Shown: positions 3,063-25,889, counted from the stretch's first letter. The stretch: 44,683 nucleotides of DNA from Thermodesulfobacteriota bacterium (GCA_034658835.1 JAYEGA010000058.1:1-44683); one strand, 5' to 3'. Numbers and translations: made by a program. Notes: a model not told the origin generated them from the sequence alone.

Positions 3063-5696
3063 TTGACTGTGCAGAAAACCCGGTCCAGCGATAAAAATAA
3101 GCGTTTTGAAATCAATTCAATGCTTTCCATCTGGCTGGCCACTCTAACTGTTGTTTTCTTGATTGTCCTGTTTGCTCTGGTCATCAACAGTGCAAGGGAA
3201 AAAGATATGGTGGAGCAGTATAGTAAACAGCAGCTTACTATTGCCAGGGGGACAGCCGCTGGAATAGAGGATCTCGTTGTTGGCGTTGAGAGGAGTATGA
3301 TAAATCTGTCCAGGCTTCCATGTGTTAAGGGAACTATGCCCGAAGCCACACTCCAGAGCTTGAAGGTAATATATAGTGATCTGGAAGGGAAGGTCAGTTT
3401 TATAGCCATAGAAGATAAGGATGGAGTAGCTATAGGTGCTTACCCGGCTTCTTTCCTGAAAGAAATGACGGGTGAGAGCTTTCAATTTTACCGCTATTTT
3501 CAGGAGGTAAAGAAAACAGGAAGACCGTATATAAGCGATCTGGTACTGGCGGGTGGAGAAAAAGGTAAGGACTTGGAAAGCAAATTTAAGTCTATTATTA
3601 TTGCTGTTCCCAGATATGATTCAGACAATGAGTTTTCCGGTGTGGTTTTTGCCGCCCTTTCTCTTTCCACCATAATCGATCGGTACATCAGGCCGGTCAA
3701 GTGTGAGGTATCGTGCTATTCCTGGATGGTGGATGATGGTGGTACAATACTTGTCCACCATGACGCGGAATTTATAGGAAAGAATATAGGGATACTCGAA
3801 GGCGCTAAATCTCAGGGATCAATACCCCTGAAAGATATTCTGCTGAAAGATGAAGGGGGATACGGTGAGTATTTGCTGCTTGCAGATGGTGGCAGGGTTG
3901 AAAAAAATGTTGTAGCCTATGCCCCGATTCATCTGGGTTCACGAAAAAGGGTGATCGCCATCAATTCTCCTTATGATATGGTGATTTCACTTTTGCGTAA
4001 GACTTTTCTCGATATCATGTCTGTAGCTGTCGGGTTGATTGTTGTCGTTATTATCGGAAGTATGTTTATGGTCCATTCGGGGAGAAAGCGACTGCGTCTC
4101 GAAGAAGAAGTGAAGCACCTGAAGGAGAGGAGTGTCTGGCAGGAAAAACTCGCCAGGGAGAAGAAGACCATTGAAGGAATCATAGAAGGATCTCCCATAC
4201 CGACATTTGTCATAAATAAAGAGCATGAGATCATCCTCTGGAGCAAGGCCTGTACTGAGCTGACCGGTTTTGACAGCAAGGAGATGATAGGCACAGACAG
4301 GCAGCATGTTCCATTCTATCCGGACAAGAGACCGGTTATAGCCGATCTGATTATTGATAATGATACTGAAGGATTGAAAAAGTATTATGGTGGTAAGATG
4401 GTACAGGAGTCGGTGGTAGTAAAGGGTGCTTATGAAGCGAGTGATTTCTTTAAGGACTTAGGTGGTAAAGATAGACACCTCTATTTTTTGGCGGCTCCGA
4501 TATATGATAAAAAAGGGGAGGTTATTGCAGCTATTGAAACCCTTCAGGATGTCTCCCATGAAAAGGAAATGGGACTCAAATTAAAGGAATATGCGGAGAC
4601 CCTCGAAAATGAACTGGATAAAAATGTCAGGCTAAAAGATGAGATGGAAGGACTTTACAATTATCTACAGTCTATATTGGATAGTTCCCCCGATCTGGTA
4701 TTTGTCTTCAACAGTGAGGGAGCTATCGATTATGTCAGCCGGGAAATGAGAGAAAAAAACGGATCTGCCTTTCAGCAGATCAAGGGTAAACATTTTACAG
4801 GATTTGTTGCCCCGGAACACAGGGATTCCATGCTTGAAAAATGGAAAGAGATAAAGAGAGGAATATTTAAACCTTTCGAGATTGAGGTAAAAAGAGAGGA
4901 TGGTTCGGCAAGAAATTTATTGTTAATCTCCGGCCCGATTAAGGGCACGGACCGGTATGTTGTTGTTCAACGTGATATTACGGAATTTAAAAACCTTGAG
5001 AAAAAATTCTATGAGAGCCAGAAGCTTGCTGCTGTGGGACAGTTGTCCGCCGGTATTGCACACGAAGTCAGAAACCCGCTTTCTTCTATAAAAATGAGCC
5101 TTCAAATTCTGGAAAAAAGGCTGAAACCTTCAGGAAATGATTTGAAGAGATTCAAGATTGCCGAGAAGGAGGTTGAGCACCTGGAGAAACTGGTAAGAGA
5201 TATCCTTATTTTTGCCAAGCCTGGAGAACCTAAAAAGGAACTTGATGATATCAATAAATTTCTTGGACGTTCTCTTGCAATGGCTGAAAAGGAAATATCG
5301 GACAAAAAGATAAATATCCAGTATATGTATGATAAAAATATTCCGCTTGTGAAATTTGATTCAGCCATGTTGGAGGAGGCATTTTTAAATATCTATCTCA
5401 ATGCTGTTGACGCAATGGAAGATCGGGGAAAGCTCTTAATATCGACGAAACTGCTTAAGAATAAGCATGATTCCATCGTTGTTAAGATTGAGGATAATGG
5501 TTGTGGTATTGATGAGGAGGACCTGCATCACATATTCAACCCATTTTTTACGAAGAAGAAGTATGGTACCGGTCTTGGGTTGACCCAGGTTAAGAAGATT
5601 GTTGACCTGCATCAGGGAACGGTGGAAGTCGTAAGTAAAAAGGGGAAAGGAACGACAGTTTGTATCACATTTCCTATTTTCAGTGAGGAAACGTGA
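3063..5696 (+). CDS. Sensor histidine kinase (TM, periplasmic Cache, TM, two PAS domains, HisKA, HATPase_c)
   Basis: H-box is AAVGQLSAGIAHEVRNPL. N-box is LNIYLNAVDAM. G-boxes are DNGCGI and GTGLGL. Two hydrophobic segments flank about 270 aa of Cache-like sequence. The TTG start sits 5 nt after AAGGAG; an alternative ATG is at 3120. Confidence 0.9.
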   Translation: MTVQKTRSSDKNKRFEINSMLSIWLATLTVVFLIVLFALVINSAREKDMVEQYSKQQLTIARGTAAGIEDLVVGVERSMINLSRLPCVKGTMPEATLQSLKVIYSDLEGKVSFIAIEDKDGVAIGAYPASFLKEMTGESFQFYRYFQEVKKTGRPYISDLVLAGGEKGKDLESKFKSIIIAVPRYDSDNEFSGVVFAALSLSTIIDRYIRPVKCEVSCYSWMVDDGGTILVHHDAEFIGKNIGILEGAKSQGSIPLKDILLKDEGGYGEYLLLADGGRVEKNVVAYAPIHLGSRKRVIAINSPYDMVISLLRKTFLDIMSVAVGLIVVVIIGSMFMVHSGRKRLRLEEEVKHLKERSVWQEKLAREKKTIEGIIEGSPIPTFVINKEHEIILWSKACTELTGFDSKEMIGTDRQHVPFYPDKRPVIADLIIDNDTEGLKKYYGGKMVQESVVVKGAYEASDFFKDLGGKDRHLYFLAAPIYDKKGEVIAAIETLQDVSHEKEMGLKLKEYAETLENELDKNVRLKDEMEGLYNYLQSILDSSPDLVFVFNSEGAIDYVSREMREKNGSAFQQIKGKHFTGFVAPEHRDSMLEKWKEIKRGIFKPFEIEVKREDGSARNLLLISGPIKGTDRYVVVQRDITEFKNLEKKFYESQKLAAVGQLSAGIAHEVRNPLSSIKMSLQILEKRLKPSGNDLKRFKIAEKEVEHLEKLVRDILIFAKPGEPKKELDDINKFLGRSLAMAEKEISDKKINIQYMYDKNIPLVKFDSAMLEEAFLNIYLNAVDAMEDRGKLLISTKLLKNKHDSIVVKIEDNGCGIDEEDLHHIFNPFFTKKKYGTGLGLTQVKKIVDLHQGTVEVVSKKGKGTTVCITFPIFSEET

Positions 5697-5739
5697 GAAA
5701 GATTGGAGATTAAGGGTTAAGTTTATTAGGAGTGGTGGC

Positions 5740-7119
5740 ATGTCGAAGATTCTTGTAGTGGATGATGACAGTTCTATATGTGAGACCCTCAAACTATATT
5801 TGACTGAAGAAGGGCATGAAGTACATACAGCACTGACCGGTACTGATGGGTTGAATAAGGTAGTTGAGGTTTCCCCTGATGTTGTAATTCTGGATATAAG
5901 ACTCCCGGATATTGACGGCTTTACCGTATTGGAAGATCTAAAAACGGATGATGAAGACACTAAAGTGATTATGATTACCGCTCATCATGATATGGATACG
6001 GCTATCAAGGCAATGAAGGAGGGGGCCTTTGATTACATTCACAAACCTATTGATGTTGATGAGCTGGACATAACCATTCAGAAGGCTTTAACAACCCTTG
6101 AAATGGAAAAGAAGATAAATGGTCTCCTCATGGAGCCTTCGAGGGATTTCAAGGTGGGGGACATTATTGGTGCAAGCAGTGCGATGAGCGAGATTTTTAA
6201 AATCATAGGAGTTGTTTCTCAGAGTAAAACAACAGTGCTTATTCAAGGAGAGAGCGGAACTGGTAAGGAACTGATTGCAAAGGTTATACATAGTAGCACG
6301 TCGAGCATTGAGCCTTATATAGCGATAAACTGCTCCGCCATTGTGGATACCCTCCTCGAATCTGAACTTTTTGGTCATGAGAAGGGCTCTTTTACCGGGG
6401 CAATAAGCAGAAAATTGGGTAAATTTGAGCTTGCCCGTTATGGTACGGTTTTTTTAGATGAGATCAGCGAGATGTCGATAAACCTTCAGGCCAAGCTCCT
6501 GAGAGTACTCCAGGAGATGGAGTTTGAGAGGGTTGGAGGTAAAGACAGGGTAAAGGTTAATGCAAGGATAATCACTGCCACCAACAAGGATCTCAAGAAA
6601 CTTGTGAGAGAAGGAAAATTCAGGGATGATCTTTATTATCGCCTGAATATTGTGTCAATAAACATCCCTCCACTGAGAGAGAGGGGAGAGGATATCCATC
6701 CACTTGTTAACTATCTCCTCAAAAAGATCAATCGTGAACTTCATAAGAGGATTGTTGGTGTATCTGATGAAATGATGGACGTCTTTATGAAATACAACTG
6801 GCCTGGAAATATCAGGGAGCTGGAGAATCTTCTGGTTAGAGCTACTGTTATAGCCAAGGGGCAGGTTCTCGGAAGAGGTGATTTCCCTGATCTGTTGGAA
6901 GACTTTTCCGAAGGAGAAATTCGGAGCGAAACGATAAACGAAGAAAGCGAAAAAGATGAGAATTTTGAGATCTGTACCATAGATGAAATAGAAAAGAAGC
7001 ATATAAGGAGAATAATCGAGAAAACCGGCAGGAATAAGGGTGAAATCTGCAAAATACTCGGTATCTCGCGGCCTACACTTGAGAGAAAATTAGAAAAGTA
7101 TGGTATAAAGTTTGAGTAA
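5740..7119 (+). CDS. Sigma-54-dependent response regulator (REC, AAA+ sigma-54 interaction domain, Fis-type HTH)
   Basis: The REC domain shows ILVVDDD and ILDIRLPDIDG. Walker A is GESGTGKE, and the GAFTGA-type loop is GSFTGA. ESELFGHEKG is present, and the C-terminal HTH is ICKILGISRPTLERKL. I prefer the ATG at 5740 (SD AGGAG upstream) over the track's GTG at 5683, which overlaps the kinase. Confidence 0.92.
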   Translation: MSKILVVDDDSSICETLKLYLTEEGHEVHTALTGTDGLNKVVEVSPDVVILDIRLPDIDGFTVLEDLKTDDEDTKVIMITAHHDMDTAIKAMKEGAFDYIHKPIDVDELDITIQKALTTLEMEKKINGLLMEPSRDFKVGDIIGASSAMSEIFKIIGVVSQSKTTVLIQGESGTGKELIAKVIHSSTSSIEPYIAINCSAIVDTLLESELFGHEKGSFTGAISRKLGKFELARYGTVFLDEISEMSINLQAKLLRVLQEMEFERVGGKDRVKVNARIITATNKDLKKLVREGKFRDDLYYRLNIVSINIPPLRERGEDIHPLVNYLLKKINRELHKRIVGVSDEMMDVFMKYNWPGNIRELENLLVRATVIAKGQVLGRGDFPDLLEDFSEGEIRSETINEESEKDENFEICTIDEIEKKHIRRIIEKTGRNKGEICKILGISRPTLERKLEKYGIKFE

Positions 7120-7125: not shown

Positions 7126-7713
7126 ATGAAAATAACATCGGTAGACTTCATAAAGAGTGCCAGGGAACCCTCTCAGTATCCGAAGAGTTCACTTCCGGAG
7201 GTAGCCTTTGCCGGTAGATCCAACGTGGGAAAATCTTCGCTTATTAACACGCTTGTTAATCGAAAAAGGTTTGCCCGGACGAGCACCACTCCCGGAAGAA
7301 CACGGCTTATAAATTTTTTCATGATAAATAACCGTGTTTGTTTCGTCGACCTTCCCGGTTATGGATATGCCAGGGTACCCCTTTCTGTAAAGAGGGATTG
7401 GGGACCCATGGTGGAAAAATATCTTAGGGAACGGGAGAATCTGCGCCTTGTCATTTTAATCCTTGATGTAAGAAGGGATCCATCTGAGGGTGATCTTTCT
7501 CTTCTTGAATGGCTCCATTTTTATCGTATTAATGTCCTCGTTATTCTGACAAAAATCGACAAACTTTCCAGGAATCAAATAAAGATTCGACAGCAATGTA
7601 TAAAAAAGATCTTAGAATTATCTCTTGATAGTAACATAATTCTGTTTTCTGCCAGGACGGGCGAAGGAAAAGGGGCTATCTGGAAGGAGATAGAAAAAAG
7701 CAGTAAGCAGTAA
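7126..7713 (+). CDS. engB: Ribosome-biogenesis GTPase EngB/YsxC/YihA
   Basis: G1 is GRSNVGKSSLIN, G3 is DLPGYG and G4 is TKIDK. The length is typical at 195 aa. The gene starts 6 nt after the regulator stop. Confidence 0.9.
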   Translation: MKITSVDFIKSAREPSQYPKSSLPEVAFAGRSNVGKSSLINTLVNRKRFARTSTTPGRTRLINFFMINNRVCFVDLPGYGYARVPLSVKRDWGPMVEKYLRERENLRLVILILDVRRDPSEGDLSLLEWLHFYRINVLVILTKIDKLSRNQIKIRQQCIKKILELSLDSNIILFSARTGEGKGAIWKEIEKSSKQ

Positions 7714-7747
7714 GCAGTTTTCTTTTTGTAGTATCATCAATCCCGAG

Positions 7748-10700
7748 GTGTGGAAGTTGTTAAAAGAGAGCGAAAAAATTGGTGCTGTGATGGTTGTGGG
7801 TTCGGGTATAGCAGGAATCCAGGCTTCCCTTGACCTTGCGAATTCCGGCATAAAGGTATACCTCGTTGAAGATAGCATCAGTATCGGTGGTGTTATGGCC
7901 CAGCTCGACAAGACATTTCCCACCAATGACTGTTCTACCTGTATTCTGTCTCCAAAGCTGGTTGAAGTCGGAAGACACCCGAATGTGGAAATCATGACGA
8001 GGAGGACGGTAGAATCCGTTGAGGGAGAACCCGGACTCTTTAAGGTAAAACTCAAGAAGGCGCCGAGATTCGTTGACATTGATAAATGTACCGGGTGTGG
8101 TGATTGCGCCAATGTTTGTCCTGTATCAGTCCCGTCGGATTTTGATGAGAACCTGGATAACAGGAAGGCTATATACAGGCATTTCCCCCAGGCCATCCCG
8201 AGTGCTTTTGCCATAGACAAACTGGGGACATCTCCATGTAAGGCGGCATGTCCGACCCATATCAGTGTGCAGGGCTATGTGGCCCTGATTGCCGAGGGGA
8301 AGTACAGGGAGGCCCTGGAGCTCATCAAGAGAGACAATCCCTTTCCAGCCGTTTGCGGCAGGGTTTGCCACCATCCCTGTGAGGCGGCCTGTAAGAGGGG
8401 TGAGGTTGAAGAGCCGATCGCCATTATGCATTTGAAGAGATTTGTGGCCGACCTTGATCTGGATGATGAGACAAAGTATGTCCCGGAGGTAAAGGAGAAG
8501 AAGGATAAGAAGGTTGCCATAATCGGTTCCGGTCCTGCCGGACTGAGTGCTGCCTATTATCTTGCCATTGAAGGTTATCAGATTACTGTATTTGAATCCC
8601 TTCCAGTTGCCGGCGGAATGCTGGCAGTGGGTATCCCGGAATACCGCCTCCCGAAAGATATCCTCAACGCAGAAATAAAGATTATTGAAGACCTTGGTGT
8701 TAAAATCAAGGTCAATGCAAAAGTGGGCAAAGATATCACGATGGGTGACCTTAAAGATGGATATGATGCCCTGTTTATTGGTGTAGGCTCCCATGTTAGC
8801 AGCAAGCTTGACGTTTCAGGAGAGGAACTTGAAGGGGTTATTCACGGGATAGACTTTTTGAGAAGGGTGAATCTGGGAGAAAAGGTTTTCCTGGGGGATA
8901 GGGTTGCGGTAATCGGCGGTGGAAATGTTGCGATGGATGCTGTTCGTACGGCGCTCAGAACCGGTTCCAGGGATGCTTTCGTGCTCTACAGGAGATCGCG
9001 TGCCGAGATGCCCGCCTTACCTGAAGAGATTGAAGGAGCAATAGAGGAAGGGATCAAGATCGAATATCTGGTAGCGCCGGTGAAGATACTTGGCACGGAT
9101 GGTAAAGTGACCGGCGTCGAATGTGTCCGTATGAAACTGGGTGAACCTGATGCAGGCGGCCGCAGACGTCCTGTTCCGATAGAGGGATCGGAATTTATAC
9201 TTGAAGCAGATGCGGTTCTTCCCGCGATAGGTCAGACAAGTGATCTGTCATTTATTGCAGAGGAAAGCGAAATTTCTATCAACAGGTGGAATACCTTTGA
9301 AGTTGATCCGGTGACCTTTGCTACCAGCGTGGAGGGTGTTTTTGCGGGTGGTGATGATGTTACGGGTCCCGCCACTGTGGTCGAGGCCATCAACGCCGGG
9401 AAAGAGGCGGCTATTTCTATAGACCGTTATTTTAAAAATGTGGATATTAAGGCGGGCAGGGAGAGAGATTGGACCAAAGGTATTGCTGATGAGGCTGACA
9501 CCAGCGGAATGAAGAAAATTGATCGATACAGACCATCCACCCTCGAACCAGAGAGGAGAATAACCGACTTTGATGAAGTTGTTAAAATTTTAAGTGAGGG
9601 TGATGCTGTCAGAGAGGCAAAAAGGTGTCTTGACTGCGGGATATGTTCTGAATGTTACCGGTGTGTTGATGCCTGTCTGGCTGATGCCATTGACCATGAA
9701 ATGAAGGCAGAGGAGGAAACCATCGAGGTTGGCGCTGTTATTGCTGCCCCTGGATTTGAAGTCTTTGATGCAAAGATTAAAGGAGAATATGGCTTTGGTG
9801 TCTACGACAATGTGGTGACAAGTATACAGTTTGAAAGGATATTATCCGCGTCCGGTCCCTATTTTGGTCACGTTAAAAGAATCTCTGATGGCAAAGAGCC
9901 TGAGAAGATAGCCTTTATTCAGTGTGTAGGTTCAAGAGATACATCCTGCGGGAATAGCTGGTGTTCTTCCGTATGCTGTATGTACGCAACAAAGGAGGCC
10001 ATTATCAGCAAAGAGCATGTCAGGGGGCTTGAACCTGCCATATTCTACATGGATATCCGTGCCTACGGAAAGGATTTTGACCGGTTTGTCGAAAGGGCCA
10101 GGGAGGAGTACGGTATAAGATATATCAGATCTATACCTTCAACAATTAAGGAGATGCAGCAGACAAAAAATCTTCTTATTACATATGTCCTGGAAGATGG
10201 AACGCTTACTGAAGAAGAGTTTGATATGGTGGTTCTTTCTGTCGGTCTAACCCCGCCAAAGGATGCACCGAAACTTGCAGAGACTCTGGGAATAGAGTTA
10301 GATGAACATGGTTTCTGCAGAACCTCTCTAATAAATCCTGTGCAGACCTCCCGTGACGGTGTTTTTGTTTGTGGCGTCTTTGGTGGTCCCAAGGACATCC
10401 CTGAGACTATTATGGAGGCGAGTGGTGCCGTGGCATGTGCGGAAGGTTTGCTGGCTTCCCGGCGGGGGACACTTATTACGGAGGAAGAAATTCCTTTAGA
10501 GATAGATTTGAGAGGTGTTGGTCCGAGGATAGGGGTTTTTGTATGCCGTTGCGGAATCAATATAGGCGGAGTGGTGGATGTGCCTGTAGTAGTTGAATAT
10601 ACTAGGACCCTTCCCAATGTGGTCTACGTTGAGGAGAACCTTTTTACCTGTTCTCAGGATACAGCGGTGAATATGGCTGAAGTAATCAAGAATCACAACC

Positions 10701-12187
10701 TTACCAGAGTTGTGGTGGCATCCTGTTCTCCCCGGACACATGAAAGTCTCTTTCAGGAGAATTGTGAAAAGGCGGGTCTGAACAGGCATCTCTTTGAGAT
10801 GGCTAATATCAGAGATCAGGATTCGTGGGTCCATATGAATGAACCTGAGGCGGCGACGGAGAAGGCGAAGGATCTGGTTCGTATGGCTGTGGCTAAGGCG
10901 GAGTATCTGAACCCTTTGAAGCCTGGGCAGCTCAGTGTAAATAAAACAACATTGATCATCGGAGGTGGACTTGCCGGGATAACGGCTGCCCTCTCTCTTG
11001 CTGATCAGGGTTTTGAATCCTATATCGTGGAGAAGGAAAACGAGCTGGGTGGAAATTATCGGAAGTTGTATTATACTCTGGAAGGCCTTGATACCAGGGA
11101 ACACCTAACTGCCCTGCTGGAGCGTGTTGAAAAGAGTGAATTGGTACATGTTTACGCCGGGGCAAAGATAAAGAATATCGAAGGATTTATAGGTAATTAC
11201 GAGACCACAATTGAAGCTGGAGGAGACGAGCACCGGTTTGAACATGGTGTGGTTATAGTGGCAACAGGGGCATGCGAACTTAAGACAGATGAATATCTCT
11301 ATGGTCAGAATGATAATGTGGTAACTCAGCGGGAGCTTGAAGAACTCATTTATGAAAAGGGCGCAAAGGTTGTCAGAGCAAAAAGCGTAGTCATGATACA
11401 GTGTGTCGGCTCAAGGAATGCCGAGAGACCGTACTGCAGCAGATATTGTTGCAGTGAGGCCATAAAAAATGCCCTGAAGTTAAAAGAGACTGATCCGGAC
11501 AAGGATGTCACTGTACTCTACAGGGATATCAGGACATACGGACTTAAGGAAGAGTATTATAAAAAGGCCCGTGAGGCCAATGTCAAGTTCATCTGCTATG
11601 ATGAAGAGAGGAAGCCTGAAGTAAAGAGCGTTGGCTCTAAAGTTTATGTAACGGTTTTTGATCCGATATTGAATGAATCGGTGGAACTAGAAGCGGATAT
11701 GCTGGTGTTGAGTGTTGGCACGGTTGCCAATCCTGACAATGATGCCATTGGCAAAGCGCTGAAGGTGTCGATAAATCAGGATGGTTTCTTCCTTGAGGCC
11801 CATGTAAAGTTAAGGCCTGTTGATTTTGCAACGGATGGTATTTTCCTGTGCGGGATGGCCCATTCTCCGAAGATGAGTGATGAGACCATCACTCAGGCTA
11901 ATGCTGCCGTATCCAGGGCATGTACTATTCTGACCAAAGACTTTATAGAATCCGAAGGGAAGATTGCCTGTGTAATCAAGGAAAGATGTATGGCCTGCGG
12001 GCTTTGTGAGGTAAACTGTCCCTTTGGCGCTATAGAGGTGGATGAGAAAGAGGGTTATGCTGTGGTGAACACAGTTCTCTGTAAGGGATGTGGTGTGTGT
12101 ACTGCCTCGTGCAGGATGAATGCAGTTGATTTGGAAGGATTTAATAATGAGGAAATTCTGGCACAGATAGCAGCATTGACAGGTTAG
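7748..12187 (+). CDS. Giant HdrA-like flavo-iron-sulfur fusion protein: an HdrA module with an inserted GltD/NfnB-type NAD(P)H module, followed by a second complete HdrA module (HdrL-like)
   Basis: aa 14-70 show the HdrA FAD motifs VVGSGIAGIQASLDLA and FPTNDCSTCIL. CTGCGDCANVCP is at aa 114-125. aa ~160-560 resemble the glutamate-synthase small subunit (CKAACP...NPFPAVCGRVCHHPCEAACKRG, IIGSGPAGLSAA, VIGGGNVAMDA, VFAGGDD). CLDCGICSECYRCVDAC is at aa 627-643. CVGSRD...CSSVCCMYATKEA follows. The second module starts near aa 925 with IGVFVCRCGINIGG, IIGGGLAGITAA and CVGSRN...CSRYCCSEAIKNA. The C-terminus carries CMACGLCEVNCP and CKGCGVCTASC. The frame is continuous, with no internal stop. Confidence 0.85.
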   Translation: MWKLLKESEKIGAVMVVGSGIAGIQASLDLANSGIKVYLVEDSISIGGVMAQLDKTFPTNDCSTCILSPKLVEVGRHPNVEIMTRRTVESVEGEPGLFKVKLKKAPRFVDIDKCTGCGDCANVCPVSVPSDFDENLDNRKAIYRHFPQAIPSAFAIDKLGTSPCKAACPTHISVQGYVALIAEGKYREALELIKRDNPFPAVCGRVCHHPCEAACKRGEVEEPIAIMHLKRFVADLDLDDETKYVPEVKEKKDKKVAIIGSGPAGLSAAYYLAIEGYQITVFESLPVAGGMLAVGIPEYRLPKDILNAEIKIIEDLGVKIKVNAKVGKDITMGDLKDGYDALFIGVGSHVSSKLDVSGEELEGVIHGIDFLRRVNLGEKVFLGDRVAVIGGGNVAMDAVRTALRTGSRDAFVLYRRSRAEMPALPEEIEGAIEEGIKIEYLVAPVKILGTDGKVTGVECVRMKLGEPDAGGRRRPVPIEGSEFILEADAVLPAIGQTSDLSFIAEESEISINRWNTFEVDPVTFATSVEGVFAGGDDVTGPATVVEAINAGKEAAISIDRYFKNVDIKAGRERDWTKGIADEADTSGMKKIDRYRPSTLEPERRITDFDEVVKILSEGDAVREAKRCLDCGICSECYRCVDACLADAIDHEMKAEEETIEVGAVIAAPGFEVFDAKIKGEYGFGVYDNVVTSIQFERILSASGPYFGHVKRISDGKEPEKIAFIQCVGSRDTSCGNSWCSSVCCMYATKEAIISKEHVRGLEPAIFYMDIRAYGKDFDRFVERAREEYGIRYIRSIPSTIKEMQQTKNLLITYVLEDGTLTEEEFDMVVLSVGLTPPKDAPKLAETLGIELDEHGFCRTSLINPVQTSRDGVFVCGVFGGPKDIPETIMEASGAVACAEGLLASRRGTLITEEEIPLEIDLRGVGPRIGVFVCRCGINIGGVVDVPVVVEYTRTLPNVVYVEENLFTCSQDTAVNMAEVIKNHNLTRVVVASCSPRTHESLFQENCEKAGLNRHLFEMANIRDQDSWVHMNEPEAATEKAKDLVRMAVAKAEYLNPLKPGQLSVNKTTLIIGGGLAGITAALSLADQGFESYIVEKENELGGNYRKLYYTLEGLDTREHLTALLERVEKSELVHVYAGAKIKNIEGFIGNYETTIEAGGDEHRFEHGVVIVATGACELKTDEYLYGQNDNVVTQRELEELIYEKGAKVVRAKSVVMIQCVGSRNAERPYCSRYCCSEAIKNALKLKETDPDKDVTVLYRDIRTYGLKEEYYKKAREANVKFICYDEERKPEVKSVGSKVYVTVFDPILNESVELEADMLVLSVGTVANPDNDAIGKALKVSINQDGFFLEAHVKLRPVDFATDGIFLCGMAHSPKMSDETITQANAAVSRACTILTKDFIESEGKIACVIKERCMACGLCEVNCPFGAIEVDEKEGYAVVNTVLCKGCGVCTASCRMNAVDLEGFNNEEILAQIAALTG

Positions 12188-12201
12188 AAAGCTTTGAAAA
12201 T

Positions 12202-12639
12202 ATGGCTGAAAATAGACTAAATAAAGGTTGGGAGCCAAAGATTGTTGCTTTTTGTTGTAACTGGTGTACCTATGCCGGGGCTGACCTGGCAGGTATAAGC
12301 CGGATACAGTATCCACCGAATGTGAGAATAATAAGGGTTCCATGTACGGGCAGGATAGATCCCTTTTATATTGTCAAGGCTCTTCAGGAAGGAGCGGATG
12401 GTGTGCTTGTATCCGGTTGTCACCCCGGGGAGTGCCACTATCTGACAGGGAATTTATCTGCCAGGAGAAAATTTGCCATGTTGAAGAATTTCCTTTCATA
12501 CCTTGGGATAGAACCTGACAGGACTGTATTTACATGGGTTTCTGCGTCTGAGGGGGAGAAATTTGCCCGGGTTGTCAAAGGTGTGACGGATGCTGTTAAG
12601 ACGCTTGGTCCGGCGAATAAACTGGTAAAAAGAATATAA
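12202..12639 (+). CDS. mvhD: MvhD/FlxD-type (methyl-viologen-reducing hydrogenase delta subunit-like) protein
   Basis: IVAFCCNWCTYAGADLAG...RVPCTGR...LVSGCHPGECHY is the characteristic MvhD cysteine pattern. The gene starts 14 nt after the HdrL-like stop. Confidence 0.85.
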   Translation: MAENRLNKGWEPKIVAFCCNWCTYAGADLAGISRIQYPPNVRIIRVPCTGRIDPFYIVKALQEGADGVLVSGCHPGECHYLTGNLSARRKFAMLKNFLSYLGIEPDRTVFTWVSASEGEKFARVVKGVTDAVKTLGPANKLVKRI

Positions 12640-12651
12640 TAACAGTTTACA

Positions 12652-12686
12652 GTGGTTAGTGGTCAGTGGTCAGTGGTTAGTGGTCA
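12652..12686. repeat. Heptanucleotide tandem repeat (GTGGTYA)x5
   Basis: The sequence reads GTGGTTA GTGGTCA GTGGTCA GTGGTTA GTGGTCA. It lies between the mvhD stop (12639) and the first plausible start of the next gene. Confidence 0.9.
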
Positions 12687-13717
12687 GGGAACAGGGGTCA
12701 GAAATATTGGAAAGCATAGAAAAACAACTGCGGGAAGAAGCAAAAAGACTGTTGGTTGAAAAGAGAGTGGATGTCATTGTGGGGTATGAAAAAGGCACTC
12801 TTCCTCTTTGCTCTGTACCATGTTTTATATCAGATTCAGGAGATGCGGAAAGGCTCGTCTGGGATTTCTTCTGTATGCAGAACCTGGCTAAATATGTACA
12901 TGATCTCCTTTTTCAGCATAAGGAATCACAAAGGAATGTTAAACCGGAGGATAAAACAAGAAAGGTTATAGGAGTTGTTGCAAAAGGGTGTACTTCCAGA
13001 TCTCTGGTAATACATCTTCAGGAGAGACAGTATGACAGGGATGAAGTGGTGATTATTGGCGTTCCCTGCGCAGGTTATGTGGCTAAAGAAAAGATGGTCG
13101 AGAGAGTAAGCGGCGAGGAAATACTTGAGGGAAGGGTTGAAGGAGACAGGGTATCAGTCAAGATAGCGAGTGGTGTTAAAGATATTCCGTTGAGGGATGT
13201 TATTGCCGATAATTGTCTTACATGCCGTTTTAATAATCCGGTTATATCAGATATGATGATAGGTGATGAAACCCCGCCGATAGATGCTGATCGGGAATAC
13301 GTTCAGGTCGATGAATTTGAGAAACTGCCGCTTGAAGAGCGCTGGGCCTATTTTGCCGGTGAGATGGGCAAATGCATACGTTGTTATGCCTGCCGTAACG
13401 CCTGTCCGTCCTGTTACTGCAAAGTCTGTTTTGTTGAACAGAGCCGGCCCAACTGGGTCGGAATCGGCGAGGATCAAACAGACACACAGGTGTTTCAAAT
13501 AATGCGTATGTTCCATACAGCCGGACGTTGTGTCGACTGTGGATCATGTGTGGAAGTGTGTCCCATGAACGTTGATTTGAGGAAGTTTCTGAAGAAACTG
13601 GACAAGGATTCTTTTGAGTTGTTTGAACACAGAGCGGGAATTGTGCTTGATGAACCCGCACCTCTTGCCACTTTCAGGGATACCGATAAAGAAGAATTTA
13701 TATTTGATCCGGAATGA
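12659..13717 (+). CDS. Iron-sulfur protein, FlxC/HydB(AsrA)-like, with two [4Fe-4S]-type motifs
   Basis: CIRCYACRNACPSCYC and CVDCGSCVEVCP have the same arrangement as the protein at 15200-16225. The start is uncertain. The track's GTG at 12659 lies inside the heptamer repeat. TTG at 12707, preceded by GGGG, or GTG at 12680 are alternatives. There is no ATG near the 5' end. Confidence 0.6.
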   Translation: MVSGQWLVVREQGSEILESIEKQLREEAKRLLVEKRVDVIVGYEKGTLPLCSVPCFISDSGDAERLVWDFFCMQNLAKYVHDLLFQHKESQRNVKPEDKTRKVIGVVAKGCTSRSLVIHLQERQYDRDEVVIIGVPCAGYVAKEKMVERVSGEEILEGRVEGDRVSVKIASGVKDIPLRDVIADNCLTCRFNNPVISDMMIGDETPPIDADREYVQVDEFEKLPLEERWAYFAGEMGKCIRCYACRNACPSCYCKVCFVEQSRPNWVGIGEDQTDTQVFQIMRMFHTAGRCVDCGSCVEVCPMNVDLRKFLKKLDKDSFELFEHRAGIVLDEPAPLATFRDTDKEEFIFDPE

Positions 13718-13736
13718 AAAAGTTGATGGAGTAAAT

Positions 13737-14261
13737 ATGGAAACATTTCTGGAAGAAGTCAACAGTAGAATAGACGGTGTGCCCATACAGAGATGTTATC
13801 ACTGCCGGAAGTGCACGGCAGGGTGTCCTGTAGCCTTTGCAATGGATTACAATCCAAATACGATCATAAAAATGATTCAGATGGGTAGAAGAGATGAGGT
13901 ACTCAACAGTTCTACTATATGGCTATGTGCTTCCTGCGAAACCTGTGTTACGCGCTGTCCTAATGAGGTTGATATAGCCAGGATGATGGATGTCTTAAGA
14001 GAGATGGCTATAGAATCAGAGGTAAGGATTAAGGAAAAGAATATACTGAAATTTCATGAGGCTTTCCTTTCAAATGTGAAGATGGGTGGGCGTATAAATG
14101 AACCTCTTATGATTGTTAATTATAAGTTAAAATCGGGTGATTACTTTTCTGATATGGCGTTGGGTATAAGTATGTTTATTAAAGGCAAGCTTTTCCTCCT
14201 TTCCCCGAGAACAAAAGACATGAAATCAGTAAAAAAGATATTTGAGGAAACGAAAAGATAA
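13737..14261 (+). CDS. hdrC: Heterodisulfide reductase subunit C-like protein
   Basis: The spacing of CYHCRKCTAGCP and CASCETCVTRCP is typical of HdrC. The ATG at 13737 is preceded by GATGGAG. The track's upstream extension overlaps the previous gene. Confidence 0.8.
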   Translation: METFLEEVNSRIDGVPIQRCYHCRKCTAGCPVAFAMDYNPNTIIKMIQMGRRDEVLNSSTIWLCASCETCVTRCPNEVDIARMMDVLREMAIESEVRIKEKNILKFHEAFLSNVKMGGRINEPLMIVNYKLKSGDYFSDMALGISMFIKGKLFLLSPRTKDMKSVKKIFEETKR

Positions 14262-14287
14262 CTGAAAGTGTATCAAGGAGAATATAG

Positions 14288-15139
14288 TTGAGAGTTTCAT
14301 ATTACCCAGGATGCTCCCTTCACGCTACGGCAACAGAATACAATCAATCTGTTCGAGCTGTAAGCAGGGCCTTGGGGATCGAGCTTAAGGAAGTTGAAGA
14401 TTGGTCCTGTTGCGGTGCCACTTCTGCCCACAGTACCAATTTCAAATTATCGATTGCCCTTCCCACCAGAAATCTCGTCTCTGCAGAAAAGGATGACCTG
14501 GATATGATAATGGTTCCCTGTGCGGCCTGCTTTAACCGTTTTAAAACCGCTCAATATCACCTTGGGAGGGATGAAGAGCTAAGGACTGAGATAGAGGATA
14601 TCGTTGGTGGAGAATATAAGGGGAGCATTGCGGTAAGGAATCCTGTGGATGTTGTTTTCAATGAAATTGGCCTTGATGTTCTGAATGAAAAGGTAACCAG
14701 AAAATTATCAGGCCTTAAACCGGTTTCTTATTATGGATGTCTCTTGCTGAGACCCCCGGAGATCTGTGAATTTGATAACTACGAAAATCCGTATATGTTG
14801 GATGGAATTATGGAGAGCCTTGGCGCTGAATCCCGCCCGTGGTCCTATAAGACGGATTGCTGTGGAGGAAGCCTTACCCTGGGCAAAACTGAAATTGTCG
14901 TTCGCCTGGTGGATAAGTTAATGAGGATGGCGAGAGAAGCGGGCGCCAATTGCCTGGTTACTGCCTGTCCGATCTGCATGGCAAATTTGGATATGAGGGC
15001 CAGCGAGGGCGTGAGACTTCCGGCATTTTACTTTACGGAACTTATTGCCTTAGCGATGGGTTTGGAGGGACCGGAGAAGTGGTTCAAGATGCACAATGTT
15101 GACCCGAGATCTCTTCTTAACTCTCTGGGGTTTATATAG
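14288..15139 (+). CDS. hdrB: Heterodisulfide reductase subunit B-like protein (two CCG domains)
   Basis: YYPGCSL...WSCCGA is followed by YYGCLL...CCGG...ACPICMANL, the duplicated CCG cysteine motif. The TTG start is preceded by AAGGAG. Confidence 0.85.
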   Translation: MRVSYYPGCSLHATATEYNQSVRAVSRALGIELKEVEDWSCCGATSAHSTNFKLSIALPTRNLVSAEKDDLDMIMVPCAACFNRFKTAQYHLGRDEELRTEIEDIVGGEYKGSIAVRNPVDVVFNEIGLDVLNEKVTRKLSGLKPVSYYGCLLLRPPEICEFDNYENPYMLDGIMESLGAESRPWSYKTDCCGGSLTLGKTEIVVRLVDKLMRMAREAGANCLVTACPICMANLDMRASEGVRLPAFYFTELIALAMGLEGPEKWFKMHNVDPRSLLNSLGFI

Positions 15140-15199
15140 TATGGGACAGTTTTGGATGGTTATGCAAAGATTTAAGTATAAGTGGTGAGAAGGAAAGGT

Positions 15200-16225
15200 A
15201 TGGAAAAAAGGCTGATAAATAAGGAAATGCTTTCCGATGCTATAAAGAGAATTGCTGAAGAAATGCCGGTTTATGCACCGGTTAGAGAAGATGGAGACAT
15301 TTTCTTCAGAGTCTTGGAAGAGGGGATGGAACTTTTGACAGACTATTCCAATTCTAAAAATGCTCCCAAAAACATTTTCTTTCCCCATACCGAGGTAATG
15401 ATGAAATATACCAGAACCGACATGGGAATGGAGATTTCAGGGGGCGGGGAGGAAGCAAAAGAGGCGGTGCTCTTCGGTGTTCGTCCCTGTGATGCATTGA
15501 GTTTTGTCCTTCTGGATATGGTTTTTGACCAGAAAGAGTACCGTGATCCTTATTATATTGATAAGAGGAAGAAAACTATCATTATATCGCTTGCCTGCGT
15601 GCATCCCCCCTATACGACCTGTTTCTGTACATCGGTTGGGGGAAGCCCCATATCCTCGGAGGGTGCGGATGTGTTACTGACAGATATTGGGAAGAATTAT
15701 CTTGTTGAGTTTATAACTGACAAAGGAGAGAAACTCCTGGAGAAATTTGGAGACCTTCCCAAAGCCGACAGGGGAGTTGAAACACTTAAGGAAGAGATAT
15801 GTGAAAGAGCAGAAAAAGAGATCAAGTCCCATATACCTGCCCGTGAGATAAAACCGATACTGGATAACAATTTTGAACACCCCTTCTGGGATACAATCCA
15901 CCAAAGGTGTCTTGCCTGTGGAACCTGTACTTATTTATGTCCGACCTGTCATTGTTTCGACATCAGTGATGAGGTCAAGGGTGATGGTGGAAGGCGGATA
16001 AGATCCTGGGATTCCTGTATGTACTGGTTATTTACCCATGAAGCATCCGGTCACAATCCGAGACCGTCGCAGAAGGAGAGGTGGAGGCAGAGGGTGATGC
16101 ACAAGTTTAAGTATTATGTGGACAATTTTCAGGCCATTTCCTGTGTGGGTTGTGGCAGGTGTGTGAGGTATTGCCCGGTTAACATAGATATTAGAAAGAT
16201 AGTTGAAGATGTATCTAAGCTATAG
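15200..16225 (+). CDS. Iron-sulfur protein, FlxB / sulfhydrogenase-beta (HydB) / AsrA-like
   Basis: CLACGTCTYLCPTCHCFD and CVGCGRCVRYCP match the hallmark pattern of the HydB/AsrA family. I prefer the ATG at 15200. Confidence 0.7.
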   Translation: MEKRLINKEMLSDAIKRIAEEMPVYAPVREDGDIFFRVLEEGMELLTDYSNSKNAPKNIFFPHTEVMMKYTRTDMGMEISGGGEEAKEAVLFGVRPCDALSFVLLDMVFDQKEYRDPYYIDKRKKTIIISLACVHPPYTTCFCTSVGGSPISSEGADVLLTDIGKNYLVEFITDKGEKLLEKFGDLPKADRGVETLKEEICERAEKEIKSHIPAREIKPILDNNFEHPFWDTIHQRCLACGTCTYLCPTCHCFDISDEVKGDGGRRIRSWDSCMYWLFTHEASGHNPRPSQKERWRQRVMHKFKYYVDNFQAISCVGCGRCVRYCPVNIDIRKIVEDVSKL

Positions 16226-16240
16226 ATTGTGGAGATAGTA

Positions 16241-17080
16241 ATGCAGAATCCATATATGCCGATCCCTGTTGATGTGGAGAAAATTATAACAGAGGTAGAC
16301 ACGAAAGATATCAAGACCTTCAGGGTGGTTTTTGTTCGTGAAGAAGAAAAAGAAAACTTTAAGTATCTGCCGGGGCAGTTTGCCGAGCTTTCTATCTTCG
16401 GCAAGGGGGAATCCCCGATCGGTATTGCATCGTCACCGACGCAGCCGGACTACCTTGAATTTACAGTTCAGAAAGCGGGTGTTGTAACCACTGCGCTTCA
16501 TAATCTTGAGGAAGGAAGCCGGATCGGTATAAGGGGTCCCCTGGGCAATTCGTGGCCCATTGACTATCTCGAGGGGAAAAATATTGTTGTGGTTGGTGGT
16601 GGTTTTGCCTTTACTACTCTCAGGTCTCTGATTAACTATATGATTCACGACAATAACAGGTCACGATTCGGTAATATCACGGTTGTTTACGGGGCAAGGA
16701 GCCCAGGTCTTTTGATCTACAAAGATGAACTTTCCGACTGGGAAAAAAGGGAAGATATTGATATATATGTTACTGTGGATAAGGGAGATGAGACCTGGAA
16801 GGGTAGGGAAGGGTTTGTTCCTACGGTCTGCAAAGAGGTAGGGCCGAGCTCTGAAAATGCCGTGACCTTGATATGCGGGCCACCGATTATGATCCGTTTT
16901 ACACTGCCGGTATTTTTTGAATTAGGTTTTTCCAGAGAGAACATCATTACTTCTCTTGAAATGAGAATGAAGTGCGGGATCGGGAAATGTGGACGTTGTA
17001 ATGTCGGCAATAAATATGTCTGTAAGGATGGACCTATCTTTTCACTGACTGAGCTTGATGAACTTACGAAAGAATATTAG
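16241..17080 (+). CDS. FAD/NAD(P)H-binding oxidoreductase with a C-terminal [2Fe-2S] motif, FlxA / sulfhydrogenase-gamma (HydG) / AsrB / PyrK-like
   Basis: The flavin-binding segment is FKYLPGQFAELSIFG and the NAD-binding segment is VVVGGGFAF. The C-terminal motif is MKCGIGKCGRCNVG. Confidence 0.75.
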   Translation: MQNPYMPIPVDVEKIITEVDTKDIKTFRVVFVREEEKENFKYLPGQFAELSIFGKGESPIGIASSPTQPDYLEFTVQKAGVVTTALHNLEEGSRIGIRGPLGNSWPIDYLEGKNIVVVGGGFAFTTLRSLINYMIHDNNRSRFGNITVVYGARSPGLLIYKDELSDWEKREDIDIYVTVDKGDETWKGREGFVPTVCKEVGPSSENAVTLICGPPIMIRFTLPVFFELGFSRENIITSLEMRMKCGIGKCGRCNVGNKYVCKDGPIFSLTELDELTKEY

Positions 17081-17088: not shown

Positions 17089-17132
17089 GCAAACGGTGGC
17101 ATATAAGGTGCCTTTTACATGCCACCGTTTGC
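17089..17132. terminator. Strong hairpin between convergent flxA-like and atpB genes, probably a bidirectional terminator
   Basis: A perfect 14-bp stem, GCAAACGGTGGCAT (17089-17102) / ATGCCACCGTTTGC (17119-17132), is preceded by a T6 run. Confidence 0.6.
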
Positions 17133-17160
17133 TGAAAGCTGACGGCTGAAAGCTGATAGC
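17131..17160. repeat. Heptamer-type tandem repeat (GCTGANN)x4
   Basis: The sequence reads GCTGAAA GCTGACG GCTGAAA GCTGATA GC. It lies immediately 3' of atpB. Confidence 0.75.
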
Positions 17161-17164
17161 TCTT

Positions 17165-17821
17165 TTAGTGTGCTTCCTCCATCGCCCCTGCTATATACAT
17201 CATCGACAGCAGTACGAAGACCAGTGTCTGGATTACCGCCACAAGAAATTCAAGCGCAAGAACCGGCAATGGTACAATCAGGGGAACCAGCACAAACAAC
17301 ACACCCAGCATAATGTGTCCACCCTCCATATTTCCGAATAGTCGCACCGAAAGAGACAGAGGACGGGACAGATGACTTATTACCTCAATCGGAAACATAA
17401 GTGGCGTTAGCCACCAGACAGGTCCCAGGAATTGTTTAATGTACTTAAATCCGTGAATCTTGACGCCAATGATATGTGTCGTAACGAAAACGACCAGCGC
17501 CATGGAAACGGTAGTATTGAGATTGCTGGTGGGTCCCTCAAATCCCGGAATCTTCCCTACTATATTTGAGGTCAAAATGAAAAGGGCCAAAGTTGCCATA
17601 AGGGGGAAGAACTTTCTCCCTTCAGGTCCCATGGTATCGACAAGTAAATTGTCTATACCGCCTATGATCACTTCCATAAAATTCTGAAATCTGCCTGGAT
17701 AGATATCCATACGGCGCGTTGCCAGAAAGGAAAACAGGAGCAGGAGTACCATAATGAACCAGGTATAAGTTACATGTGGTGGAAAAAAGTTATTCTCAAA
17801 AAATAAAAAAGAATGCTGCAT
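17165..17821 (-). CDS. atpB: F-type ATP synthase subunit a
   Basis: The conserved region [15 protein letters not shown] contains the essential Arg. The protein has a multi-TM profile and a typical length of 218 aa. Confidence 0.9.
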
Positions 17822-17824
17822 CGC

Positions 17825-18220
17825 TTATTTGACCTCCTCAGCGTAGTTTTTTTTTGAAAGCTCAATAACTGTTGTAAATATAATGCTTATTACAACTATG
17901 GAAAGTCCGACTATCAAACCAATCACATCGACAGATGTTTGTGTAATGACAAGAAAAAGCACAATTGCCGTGACGGCTAATCTGATATAGTATTTGAATA
18001 CTACAACTGACGTCGTACTATCTGTAACCCTCTCAAATGCCTTTCGAAGGTTCTGGTAAAGCCAGTAAAAATTTATGATGCTTACAAGGCCGCCCAACAG
18101 TATCCCGAGAGTAAACCTGTGTGACATAAAGATTAAGCTGACTGTGAGAAAAATCCCGAGGATAATCCAGTTTCTCACCTTAAGCTTTCTGGGGATCTGG
18201 TCTTCTTCTGTGCGGTTCAT
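17825..18220 (-). CDS. atpI: ATP synthase protein I-like small membrane protein
   Basis: This 131-aa four-TM protein lies directly upstream of atpB. The listed ATG overlaps the upstream gene by 41 nt; a GTG start at 18178 is an alternative. Confidence 0.6.
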   Translation of the reverse strand: MNRTEEDQIPRKLKVRNWIILGIFLTVSLIFMSHRFTLGILLGGLVSIINFYWLYQNLRKAFERVTDSTTSVVVFKYYIRLAVTAIVLFLVITQTSVDVIGLIVGLSIVVISIIFTTVIELSKKNYAEEVK

Positions 18221-18502: not shown

Positions 18503-20495
<1,993 letters not shown>

Positions 20496-22247: not shown

Positions 22248-22293
22248 AGGAAACCTCCTTTGATTTATACTTTACCCCTTATTCTAACCGGTT

Positions 22294-23916: not shown

Positions 23917-23976
23917 AAGATACCTCCTTATTTATACTTGGTTTAACTTTGGTGGTCTCGTGAAAAATTCACACAG

Positions 23977-24095
23977 TGTCATTCTGAGGAGTCCTGAGTG
24001 TAAACGAAGAAACTTGACGAAGAATCTCAACAATACCTGCCTGCCGCGCTGCGGCGCAGGCAGGTCAGATTCTTCTCTATTGCTCAGAATGACAT
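23977..24095. repeat. REP/MITE-like nested palindromic intergenic element (~120 bp)
   Basis: The outer arms are TGTCATTCTGAG (23977-23988) / CTCAGAATGACA (24084-24095). The inner arms are GAAGAATCT/AGATTCTTC and ACCTGCCTGC/GCAGGCAGGT. The 5' end, GTCATTCTGAGGAGT, resembles GTCATTGCGAGGAGT at 37023. Confidence 0.7.
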
Positions 24096-24218
24096 TTGAA
24101 AAAGGACTCCTTGATGCTCTGAATATTTTCTGCTCGCAGAGTCCTGTTTCACCTTTAAATGTTCCGGTTCTCTTCCCAACCGGGCGATTATACCCGGATA
24201 ACCCTTCCAGCGTTGCTT

Positions 24219-25034: not shown

Positions 25035-25047
25035 TTTATTGTCCTTT

Positions 25048-25878: not shown

Positions 25879-25889
25879 ACTTCATCTCC

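Follow-up and report, generated by a model that had tools for sequence, protein, structure and literature searches.

The window analyzed here is a 44,683-nucleotide stretch of DNA from a Thermodesulfobacteriota bacterium (GCA_034658835.1, JAYEGA010000058.1:1-44683), and it carries a string of seven tightly spaced plus-strand genes at positions 7748-17080 that is predicted to encode a variant of the Flx-Hdr electron-transfer system (Table 1). Open reading frame (ORF) calls together with Pfam, NCBIfam and PDB sequence searches bore out the gene list and coordinates of the initial annotation, as well as its view that all Flx-Hdr component families are recognizable, with a candidate protein in the FlxC position. 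The gene order is indeed non-canonical: hdrCB separates flxC from flxB, and the canonical arrangement is hdrCBA-flxDCBA. Stand-alone HdrA is replaced by the fusion protein HdrL, which bears its own NfnB/GltD-type nucleotide site, and there are thus two separate pyridine-nucleotide modules, one in the HdrL insert and one in the FlxA-like protein. The count of flavin domains had to be revised: three had been proposed, and there are at least four, three in HdrL (two HdrA-type and one NfnB-type) and one in FlxA. Spacers within the string are approximately 3-70 bp; mvhD starts 14 bp past the hdrL stop codon and only 3 bp separate flxB from flxA.

Table 1. Features of the hdrL-flx-hdr string in the window (positions counted from the first nucleotide; HdrL domains follow the gene to which they belong).
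Feature	Position	Strand	Description
hdrL	7748..12187	+	1479 aa; HdrA, GltD/NfnB and FAD domains (Pfam, NCBIfam)
HdrL residues 1-158, start of HdrA unit 1	7748..8221	+	Rossmann GxGxxG; DCSTC (C62, C65); inserted-ferredoxin Cys motif 1 (C114-C124)
HdrL residues ~160-625, NfnB/GltD-type module	8225..9622	+	two [4Fe-4S] sites, FAD site, NAD(P)H site
HdrL residues 626-905, rest of HdrA unit 1	9623..10462	+	inserted-ferredoxin Cys motif 2, CVGSRD...CC cluster motif, FAD-N5 lysine K749
HdrL residues 926-1479, HdrA unit 2	10523..12187	+	HdrA N-terminal domain, FAD domain (GGGLAG, K1240), C-terminal 2x[4Fe-4S] ferredoxin domain
mvhD / flxD	12202..12639	+	145 aa; [2Fe-2S] connector subunit; Pfam FlpD E 6e-55
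FlxC-position iron-sulfur (FeS) protein, FdhB/FrhB-like fold	12707..13717	+	ORF listed from GTG 12659
hdrC	13737..14261	+	2x[4Fe-4S] subunit; ORF listed from 13614
hdrB	14288..15139	+	two complete CCG domains; predicted disulfide reduction site
FlxB-like, HydB/AsrA family FeS subunit	15182..16225	+	Pfam Fer4_22
FlxA-like, HydG/AsrB/PyrK family	16229..17080	+	FAD, NAD(P)H, [2Fe-2S]
Terminator-like inverted repeat	17091..17132		13 bp arms CAAACGGTGGCAT / ATGCCACCGTTTG around smaller GC hairpin, then T run

We scanned one genome per GTDB species for HdrL, which yielded 79 loci, and searched these by tblastn with all proteins encoded in the window. In 31 GTDB species-representative genomes, all seven genes were collinear on the same strand, spanning 9.27-9.77 kb and always in the window's order, hdrL-flxD-flxC-hdrC-hdrB-flxB-flxA. 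These genomes are labeled Syntrophales, Syntrophaceae, Smithella or Smithellaceae, with a few bearing generic labels only. Protein identities along the string range from 58 to 91%, and HdrL orthologues in Syntrophales are 71-86% identical. Every predicted cluster cysteine is invariant in the 32 orthologue sets (window plus 31 genomes), which amounts to 38 residues in HdrL, 10 in HdrB (all in its CCG motifs), 8 in HdrC, 15 in the FlxB-like protein, 16 in the FlxC-like protein and 4 in the FlxA-like protein. A Joint Genome Institute (JGI) metagenome contig, reached independently through a homologue of one of the FeS proteins, has the same order in its Pfam-annotated gene calls. The string is therefore not a chance juxtaposition unique to this assembly, an outcome that the initial annotation had named as one refutation. 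Judged by sequence conservation, it is a functional unit kept under purifying selection. An exact look-up of the window MvhD returned two contigs of about 1 kb only.

The string is often extended. In 20 Syntrophales species (for example L005, L008, L014 and L048) and in L082 (14512-16753), nfnA and nfnB lie directly downstream of the flxA-like gene, and their products match the Thermotoga maritima NfnAB structure 4ylf with E-values of 6e-81 and 1e-179, respectively. The window has no nfnAB, and a convergent atpB stands there instead. Beyond Syntrophales the arrangement differs. Desulfobacterales HdrL proteins are approximately 50% identical to that of the window and have MvhD as their sole companion, with no Flx or HdrBC genes nearby. 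Loci labeled Peptococcaceae, Thermoplasmatota, Planctomycetaceae and, in one case, simply "bacterium" contain hdrL or a double-hdrA gene followed by mvhD and flxC; on contigs that extend further, flxB and flxA come next, without hdrCB between them. Homologues of the string proteins also occur in clusters of canonical order (hdrA-mvhD-flxC-flxB-flxA) in other phyla.

Three loci from Smithella/Smithellaceae genomes (L029, L045 and L079) contain a second, more canonical set of genes directly after the string, consisting of hdrD-like (391 aa), hdrA (653 aa), mvhD, flxC-like and flxB-like genes, and this set resembles the HdrD-type Hdr/Flox of Syntrophobacter fumaroxidans. Its presence implies that the HdrL string is a paralogous system, and not just the canonical Flx-Hdr copy of that genome. 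The "Hdr/Flox" cluster of Ca. Smithella cisternae is described as having approximately 14 genes and is treated generically as HdrABC/MvhD-like, in an account that gives no HdrL, gene order or NfnB module (PMC5606693). By gene content, that cluster is probably the string plus a second set of this kind, which together make up approximately 14 genes.

In a phmmer search of the PDB, HdrL matched HdrA of Methanothermococcus thermolithotrophicus (5odc_A) with an E-value of 1e-190 in four aligned stretches: HdrL residues 39-158, 633-850, 926-1102 and 1304-1475 correspond to HdrA residues 171-290, 293-511, 4-180 and 474-647. Between the first two of these stretches, HdrL residues 162-640 match NfnB-type chains, namely 9bov_A (E 2.5e-137), 9n5u_A, the Stn chain 8oh5_C and T. 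maritima NfnB 4ylf_B (E 1e-103). In HdrA unit 1 the NfnB module interrupts the inserted ferredoxin domain, whose two Cys motifs (C114-C124 and C627-C643) stand on either side of the module. The start of unit 1 lacks the HdrA N-terminal domain, and its glycines and cysteines are invariant in the 32 orthologues. The remainder of unit 1 has no C-terminal ferredoxin domain; here the cysteines and K749, which sits at the position of HdrA K409, are kept in 32 of 32. Unit 2 contains neither the inserted ferredoxin domain nor the DCSxC motif, and its FAD domain is approximately 90 residues shorter than that of HdrA (cysteines 32/32, K1240 31/32). The domain losses of the two units are complementary, and this suggests that each half supplies the accessory domains that the other lacks, such that HdrL would form one asymmetric, fused pseudo-dimer that replaces the homodimer of HdrA.

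The residues expected around the flavins are retained as well. The FAD-N5 lysine is present in both HdrA units (K749 and K1240), and the NfnB insert has kept the corresponding arginine, R300, which aligns with NfnB R187. R300 and the cluster ligands C164, C168, C203, C207, C211 and C215 are found in all 32 orthologues. The second Rossmann motif of the insert, GGGNVAMD, is followed by YRRS, whose arginines R415 and R416 are conserved in 31 of 32; we take this Arg-Arg pair to be the NADPH-type signature of GltD/NfnB proteins. In NfnB, R187 is hydrogen-bonded to N5 of the bifurcating FAD, and HdrA K409 is likewise an N5-contacting residue (PMC6405883).

The HdrL fusion type is widespread, as judged from a search with residues 1-900 against 1.84 billion representative sequences. 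The best 150 matches listed include approximately 25 clusters (50% identity level) with lengths near 1470-1530 aa and a similar number at 900-1140 aa, both aligned end to end. Single ORFs of approximately 1009 aa at L055 (2930-6001) and L057 (2262-5291) match HdrL residues 8-158 and 623-1477, which corresponds to a double HdrA without the insert, and both are followed by mvhD-flxC-flxB-flxA. On these alignments HdrL looks as if it arose when an NfnB module was inserted into an existing double HdrA, with the L055 and L057 ORFs resembling the precursor.

The protein at the FlxC position gave only generic Fer4 matches in Pfam. The initial annotation had described the FlxB- and FlxC-like subunits as two paralogous HydB/AsrA-like FeS proteins, and this holds for one domain: both have the CPxC(Y/H)C motif (CPSCYC at 249-254 and CPTCHC at 253-258), and their C-terminal domains are shared. 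BLASTP aligned the two at 27% identity over 105 residues only, and profile-profile comparison with hhalign, using 32 orthologues of each, detected homology in 84 C-terminal columns only, which correspond to the dicluster domain. Full-length paralogy was rejected on these alignments. An AlphaFold2 model of the FlxC-like protein (predicted local distance difference test score 81, predicted template-modeling score 0.83) was most similar in Foldseek to FdhB of the Methanospirillum hungatei Fdh-Hdr-Fmd complex (7bkb_E; template-modeling (TM) score 0.70, E 1e-17), then to the FdhB-like chain of Methanothermobacter marburgensis Elp-Hdr (8rvu_E), and next to FrhB and other F420-type beta subunits. The sulfhydrogenase beta subunit was absent among the 16 Foldseek matches with E <= 0.001. 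Pfam FrhB_FdhB_C was weakly matched by 26 of 49 FlxC-like orthologues, and JGI labels such homologues "formate dehydrogenase beta subunit". According to the model, then, the overall fold of the FlxC-like protein is that of FdhB/FrhB and not HydB-like. Homologues with 29-40% identity occupy the flxC position of canonical-order clusters (L055-L058 and L079). An FdhB-type protein is also reported as Sfum_0822 of S. fumaroxidans (PMC5947623), and Desulfobacterium autotrophicum has hdrA/L-mvhD-fdhB loci (PMC2702500); both are consistent with the FlxC-like fold.

The remaining subunits are readily assigned. MvhD residues C19, C22, C48 and C78 are invariant in the 32 orthologues. HdrC matches the NCBIfam HdrC models (E 1e-19), and HdrB matches Pfam CCG in two stretches (E 2e-25) and TIGR03288 (E 5e-45). 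The FlxB-like protein matches Fer4_22 (E 4e-35), the NCBIfam ShyB/HydB/AsrA family and the beta subunit of Pyrococcus furiosus sulfhydrogenase (9nez_B, E 2.5e-48). The FlxA-like protein contains Pfam FAD_binding_6, NAD_binding_1 and DHODB_Fe-S_bind domains and matches the 9nez_C chain (E 2.5e-56); its GGG motif is invariant along with the four [2Fe-2S] cysteines, and it is 58-59% identical to the flxA-position protein of the canonical-order clusters L055 and L057. One peculiarity was seen in MvhD: the codon for Cys73, the first cysteine of the conserved GCHPGEC, is an in-frame TGA in L019, L029, L039, L045 and L047, and it is a Cys codon in the window. Some of these loci are labeled Smithella or Smithellaceae, and the L082 gene call (9504-9941) is split at the same point. 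MvhD is probably a selenocysteine protein in some lineages, to judge from these codons.

The FlxABCD-HdrABC system of Desulfovibrio vulgaris was reportedly described by Ramos et al. in 2015. As cited in PMC5947623, PMC6687939 and PMC10553843, this system and the string share the FlxA, HydB-like FlxB, MvhD-like FlxD, HdrB and HdrC families, and probably the second FeS protein FlxC; they also share the flxD-C-B-A order and the adjacency of hdrA and flxD. The D. vulgaris system is reported to reduce ferredoxin and DsrC with NADH and to be needed for ethanol/NADH metabolism. The window differs in having a 1479-aa HdrL instead of a stand-alone HdrA, in the location of hdrCB, which separates flxC from flxB instead of preceding hdrA, and in its second, probably NADPH-type, nucleotide site. 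Another similar system is the HdrABC/HdrL cluster Sfum_0819-0824 of S. fumaroxidans, a propionate-oxidizing member of Desulfobacterota, which by its description contains HdrL, MvhD, an FdhB/hydrogenase-beta-type FeS protein and HdrBC; unlike the window, it has a separate HdrA, and no FlxB or FlxA is described for it (PMC5947623). HdrL1-3 of D. autotrophicum HRM2, from which the HdrL family is defined, are likewise fusions of HdrA with a glutamate-synthase-type protein and are followed by mvhD, but these loci pair HdrL-MvhD with, for example, dsrABC or fdhB, and some of the products are selenoproteins (Strittmatter et al. 2009; PMC2702500).

Structurally characterized complexes provide a second frame of reference. 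The methanogen Fdh-Hdr-Fmd (7BKB), Elp-Hdr (8RVU) and MvhAGD-HdrABC (5ODC) complexes have homologous HdrA, HdrB, HdrC and MvhD subunits, and the FdhB fold is matched with TM scores of 0.65-0.70. In contrast to these complexes, catalytic subunits of hydrogenase or Fdh are absent from the operon, its flanks and the related loci; the predicted electron donors are pyridine nucleotides; and HdrA is duplicated, fused and interrupted by an insertion. The HdrL insert shares with NfnAB and Stn transhydrogenases (4YLF, 5JCA, 8OH5; PMC6405883, PMC10482914) the NfnB signature, two [4Fe-4S] sites, the arginine of the bifurcating FAD and the NADPH-type site. Unlike NfnAB, the window has no NfnA partner, the FlxA-like protein being only a distant PyrK-family relative (E 4e-16), and the module sits inside a ferredoxin domain of HdrA. 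AsrABC and sulfhydrogenases differ again, since the window has beta- and gamma-like subunits only and contains neither the AsrC sirohaem subunit nor the [NiFe] alpha and delta subunits.

We consider it fairly probable that the operon encodes a soluble, HdrL-type variant of FlxABCD-HdrABC that is inherited vertically throughout Syntrophales and serves general redox balancing. Its most likely function, by analogy with characterized relatives, is that of a flavin-based bifurcating or confurcating NAD(P)H:disulfide(/ferredoxin) oxidoreductase. Starting from the gene content, order, conservation and cofactor motifs established above, we infer assembly into one complex, its substrates and its direction, and the electron paths are modeled on homologous solved complexes. 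Electrons from NAD(P)H would enter at the FAD of the FlxA-like protein and pass through its [2Fe-2S] cluster to the FeS clusters of the FlxB-like protein, following the sulfhydrogenase gamma/beta pattern. The FdhB-fold FlxC-like protein and MvhD would then deliver them to the cluster of the HdrA N-terminal domain, which is present in HdrL unit 2 only, in a wiring like that of Fdh-Hdr and Elp-Hdr, solved complexes in which the FdhB chains feed MvhD/HdrA. Electron pairs would be split or merged at an HdrA-type FAD. A high-potential branch could run from the single C-terminal ferredoxin domain through HdrC to the two CCG clusters of HdrB and a putative disulfide, and a low-potential branch from the single inserted ferredoxin domain to the NfnB module, with its bifurcation-type FAD and NADPH-type site, and on to NADP(H) and perhaps ferredoxin. 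In this way NADH and NADPH would be linked to a thiol/disulfide couple and probably also to ferredoxin, with bifurcation or confurcation depending on the need of the cell. The nfnAB genes beside the string in 20 species and L082 fit such balancing of NADH, NADPH and ferredoxin.

Several points weigh against this interpretation. FlxAB and HdrL-MvhD-FlxC-HdrBC may not form a single complex. With three or four candidate flavin sites, neither the site of bifurcation nor the role of ferredoxin can be deduced from the sequences. Finally, the probable NADPH preference of the HdrL site is read solely from its conserved Arg-Arg pair. A more specific variant is also conceivable, in which HdrL is a single-chain pseudo-dimer with one complete electron path and has NfnB-type and HdrA-type bifurcating flavins in series at the low-potential exit; together with FlxABCD-HdrBC, this HdrL would catalyze a disulfide-coupled NADH/NADPH transhydrogenation that may not depend on ferredoxin. 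We regard this as doubtful, although such a reaction type, if real, would be one so far undescribed for Hdr enzymes.

The first of these points leads to a different division of the operon, into an NADPH:disulfide(/ferredoxin) oxidoreductase made of HdrL, MvhD, the FdhB-like protein and HdrCB, and an independent HydB/HydG-type NAD(P)H:acceptor oxidoreductase made of FlxBA. HdrL does have its own nucleotide site and occurs in Desulfobacterales with MvhD alone, no FlxAB is described for the S. fumaroxidans cluster, which combines HdrL, MvhD, the FeS protein and HdrABC (PMC5947623), and in the string hdrCB parts the closely linked flxB-flxA pair from flxC. FlxBA is nevertheless always found together with MvhD-FlxC, whether in the string or in clusters of canonical order from other phyla, and the operon holds neither [NiFe] subunits nor AsrC that could serve FlxBA as a catalytic partner. 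We regard two enzymes as unlikely. A further alternative is a formate- or H2-dependent Hdr, in which the FdhB-fold protein would dock an FdhA or hydrogenase encoded elsewhere, as in methanogen Fdh-Hdr. The fold and best PDB matches of the FlxC-like protein are FdhB chains of Hdr supercomplexes, its JGI homologues carry the formate dehydrogenase label, and D. autotrophicum has hdrA/L-mvhD-fdhB-fdhA loci (PMC2702500), but no FdhA or hydrogenase gene was present in or beside the string at the 32 loci examined, where the string has two NAD(P)H modules in their place. We consider this alternative very unlikely. Readings as sulfhydrogenase, AsrABC, Fdh-Hdr or Bam (class II benzoyl-CoA reductase) were discarded, there being no catalytic subunit in any locus.

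The initial annotation had also tied the complex to a nearby methylmalonyl-CoA (MMC) pathway, described as complete and 3.6 kb away. The distance is correct (3.59 kb downstream of the string), but the genes at 20670-36911 are a core set only. They encode two carboxyltransferase-domain proteins, SdhABCD, a class I fumarase, a malic-enzyme-like protein, an epimerase, SucCD, the large and B12-binding subunits of methylmalonyl-CoA mutase (MCM) and MeaB; no CoA-transferase or ligase, transcarboxylase 5S or 1.3S subunit or malate dehydrogenase was present among the ORFs scanned in the window. SdhABCD has two membrane Sdh_cyt subunits, and the enzyme is therefore quinone-linked. When all MMC proteins were searched by tblastn across approximately 30 species with enough flanking sequence, only L004, whose HdrL is 85% identical to that of the window, had an MMC gene less than 10 kb away from HdrL. 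In L021, GMD, epimerase, atpI and atpB genes adjoin the string, and there is no carboxyltransferase in the 1.8 kb past GMD. Below approximately 90% identity, the best matches of the window MCM (large subunit 33818-35497), at 78-83%, come from Syntrophobacteraceae, Desulfacinum, Desulfosoma and Desulfoglaeba and not from other Syntrophales. Among the 120 MCM matches listed, none lies on the large string-bearing contigs (0.2-2.8 Mb), which is weak evidence. These relationships indicate that the MMC cluster may have a history different from that of the string and its neighbors.

A complex dedicated to this pathway, which would drive succinate oxidation by confurcation or reverse electron flow during syntrophic propionate oxidation, thus has in its favor the layout shared by the window and L004, together with the assumed need of syntrophs for such devices (PMC5947623). 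Adjacency in one of approximately 30 species, and the case of L021, which keeps the intervening genes without the MMC genes, argue against it, as does the presence of the string across Syntrophales, including genomes labeled Smithella or Smithellaceae. The window MCM groups with Syntrophobacteraceae proteins and HdrL does not; no predicted link between a quinone-linked Sdh and a soluble CCG enzyme is evident; and a frequent downstream neighbor, in 20 species, is nfnAB. In addition, S. fumaroxidans, the one organism in which proteomics followed a related HdrL cluster, was always grown on propionate in a proteomic study in which the related HdrABC/HdrL complex was abundant only with sulfate available, so that its abundance tracked sulfate and not syntrophy (PMC5947623). 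A specific tie to the MMC pathway is therefore not supported, and we judge a dedicated role very unlikely. By its distribution among these genomes, the MMC adjacency is lineage-specific synteny and provides no support for such a role, which cautions against inferring function from the gene neighborhood of a single window.

Several elements of this system are already known: HdrL as a protein type since 2009, Flx-Hdr since 2011-2015, and "Hdr/Flox" clusters in Smithella and other syntrophs. To our knowledge, almost all genome-based models of syntrophic metabolism call on Flx-Hdr, and we know of no characterized complex from a syntroph. In the literature Flx-Hdr appears as a bifurcating NADH:ferredoxin/DsrC system, as a "syntroph-associated" complex and as the "Hdr/Flox" cluster of Smithella (PMC5606693, PMC7382037, PMC6687939). 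In the literature searched, two papers mention HdrL along with syntrophy and neither deals with Syntrophales, and we found no published account of an order-wide hdrL-flxDC-hdrCB-flxBA operon, its nfnAB extension, the domain logic of HdrL or the FdhB fold of FlxC. The order Syntrophales thus shares one strictly conserved, non-canonical operon with a fused double HdrA that has a predicted NfnB-type NADPH module, often together with nfnAB, and this operon offers a well-delimited object for purification, for structural work and for the mining of metatranscriptomes.

Two gene starts in the string were revised. The FlxC-like protein likely begins at TTG 12707, which is preceded by AGGGG and gives a product of 336 aa, rather than at the listed GTG 12659; the start was moved because homologues are 335-340 aa long and cover 95% of the query. 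The hdrC start, as read from the sequence, is placed at M42 of the listed ORF (13737), 19 bp past the previous stop. The window also contains short tandem arrays of heptamers: AAGCAGT x3 at 7698-7718, CAGTGGT x5.4 at 12650-12687, GCTGAAA x4.4 at 17131-17161 and ATTTCCG x5.1 at 19454-19489. The first three occupy spacers before, within and after the operon, and the listed GTG start of the FlxC-like gene falls in one of them. The flxA-like and atpB genes converge, and the inverted repeat that lies between them resembles a terminator; a hairpin scan picked up the hairpin at 17098-17112 inside it. Rfam and tRNA scans of the window gave no matches.

Upstream of the string lie genes for a histidine kinase (3063-5696) and a sigma-54 activator (5683-7119), which are kept with the string in 7-9 loci. 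In the window no -24/-12 element precedes hdrL, and among 45 related loci L010 alone has such an element; on these grounds we rejected the idea that this pair exerts sigma-54 control over the operon. A near-consensus sigma-54 -24/-12 element, TGGCATAACTGTTGCA, is located at 2602-2587 on the minus strand, approximately 115 nt upstream of the divergent atpE (2098-2472). The element is unchanged in L043, and a looser -24/-12 pattern occurs near atpE in L032, L039, L045 and L047. On this promoter evidence, the two-component pair more likely controls atpE than the operon.

The surroundings of the string vary between genomes. In the window, the minus-strand genes atpI-atpB (17165-18220) and atpE are parted by a 14.7-kb block on the opposite strand, which runs from the histidine kinase and response regulator genes through ysxC and hdrL to the flxA-like gene. 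This block is inverted relative to atpIB in L021, and atpE or atpB flanks it in other Syntrophales. In L003 and L004, the closest relatives of the window, approximately 5 kb lie between ysxC and hdrL, compared to 34 bp in the window. Farther downstream, the window contains a gene for an AbiEii-type toxin, overlapped by the ORF upstream of it (39168-40465), and, nearby, an intergenic 76-bp tandem repeat of 2.2 copies with 97% matches (41337-41506).

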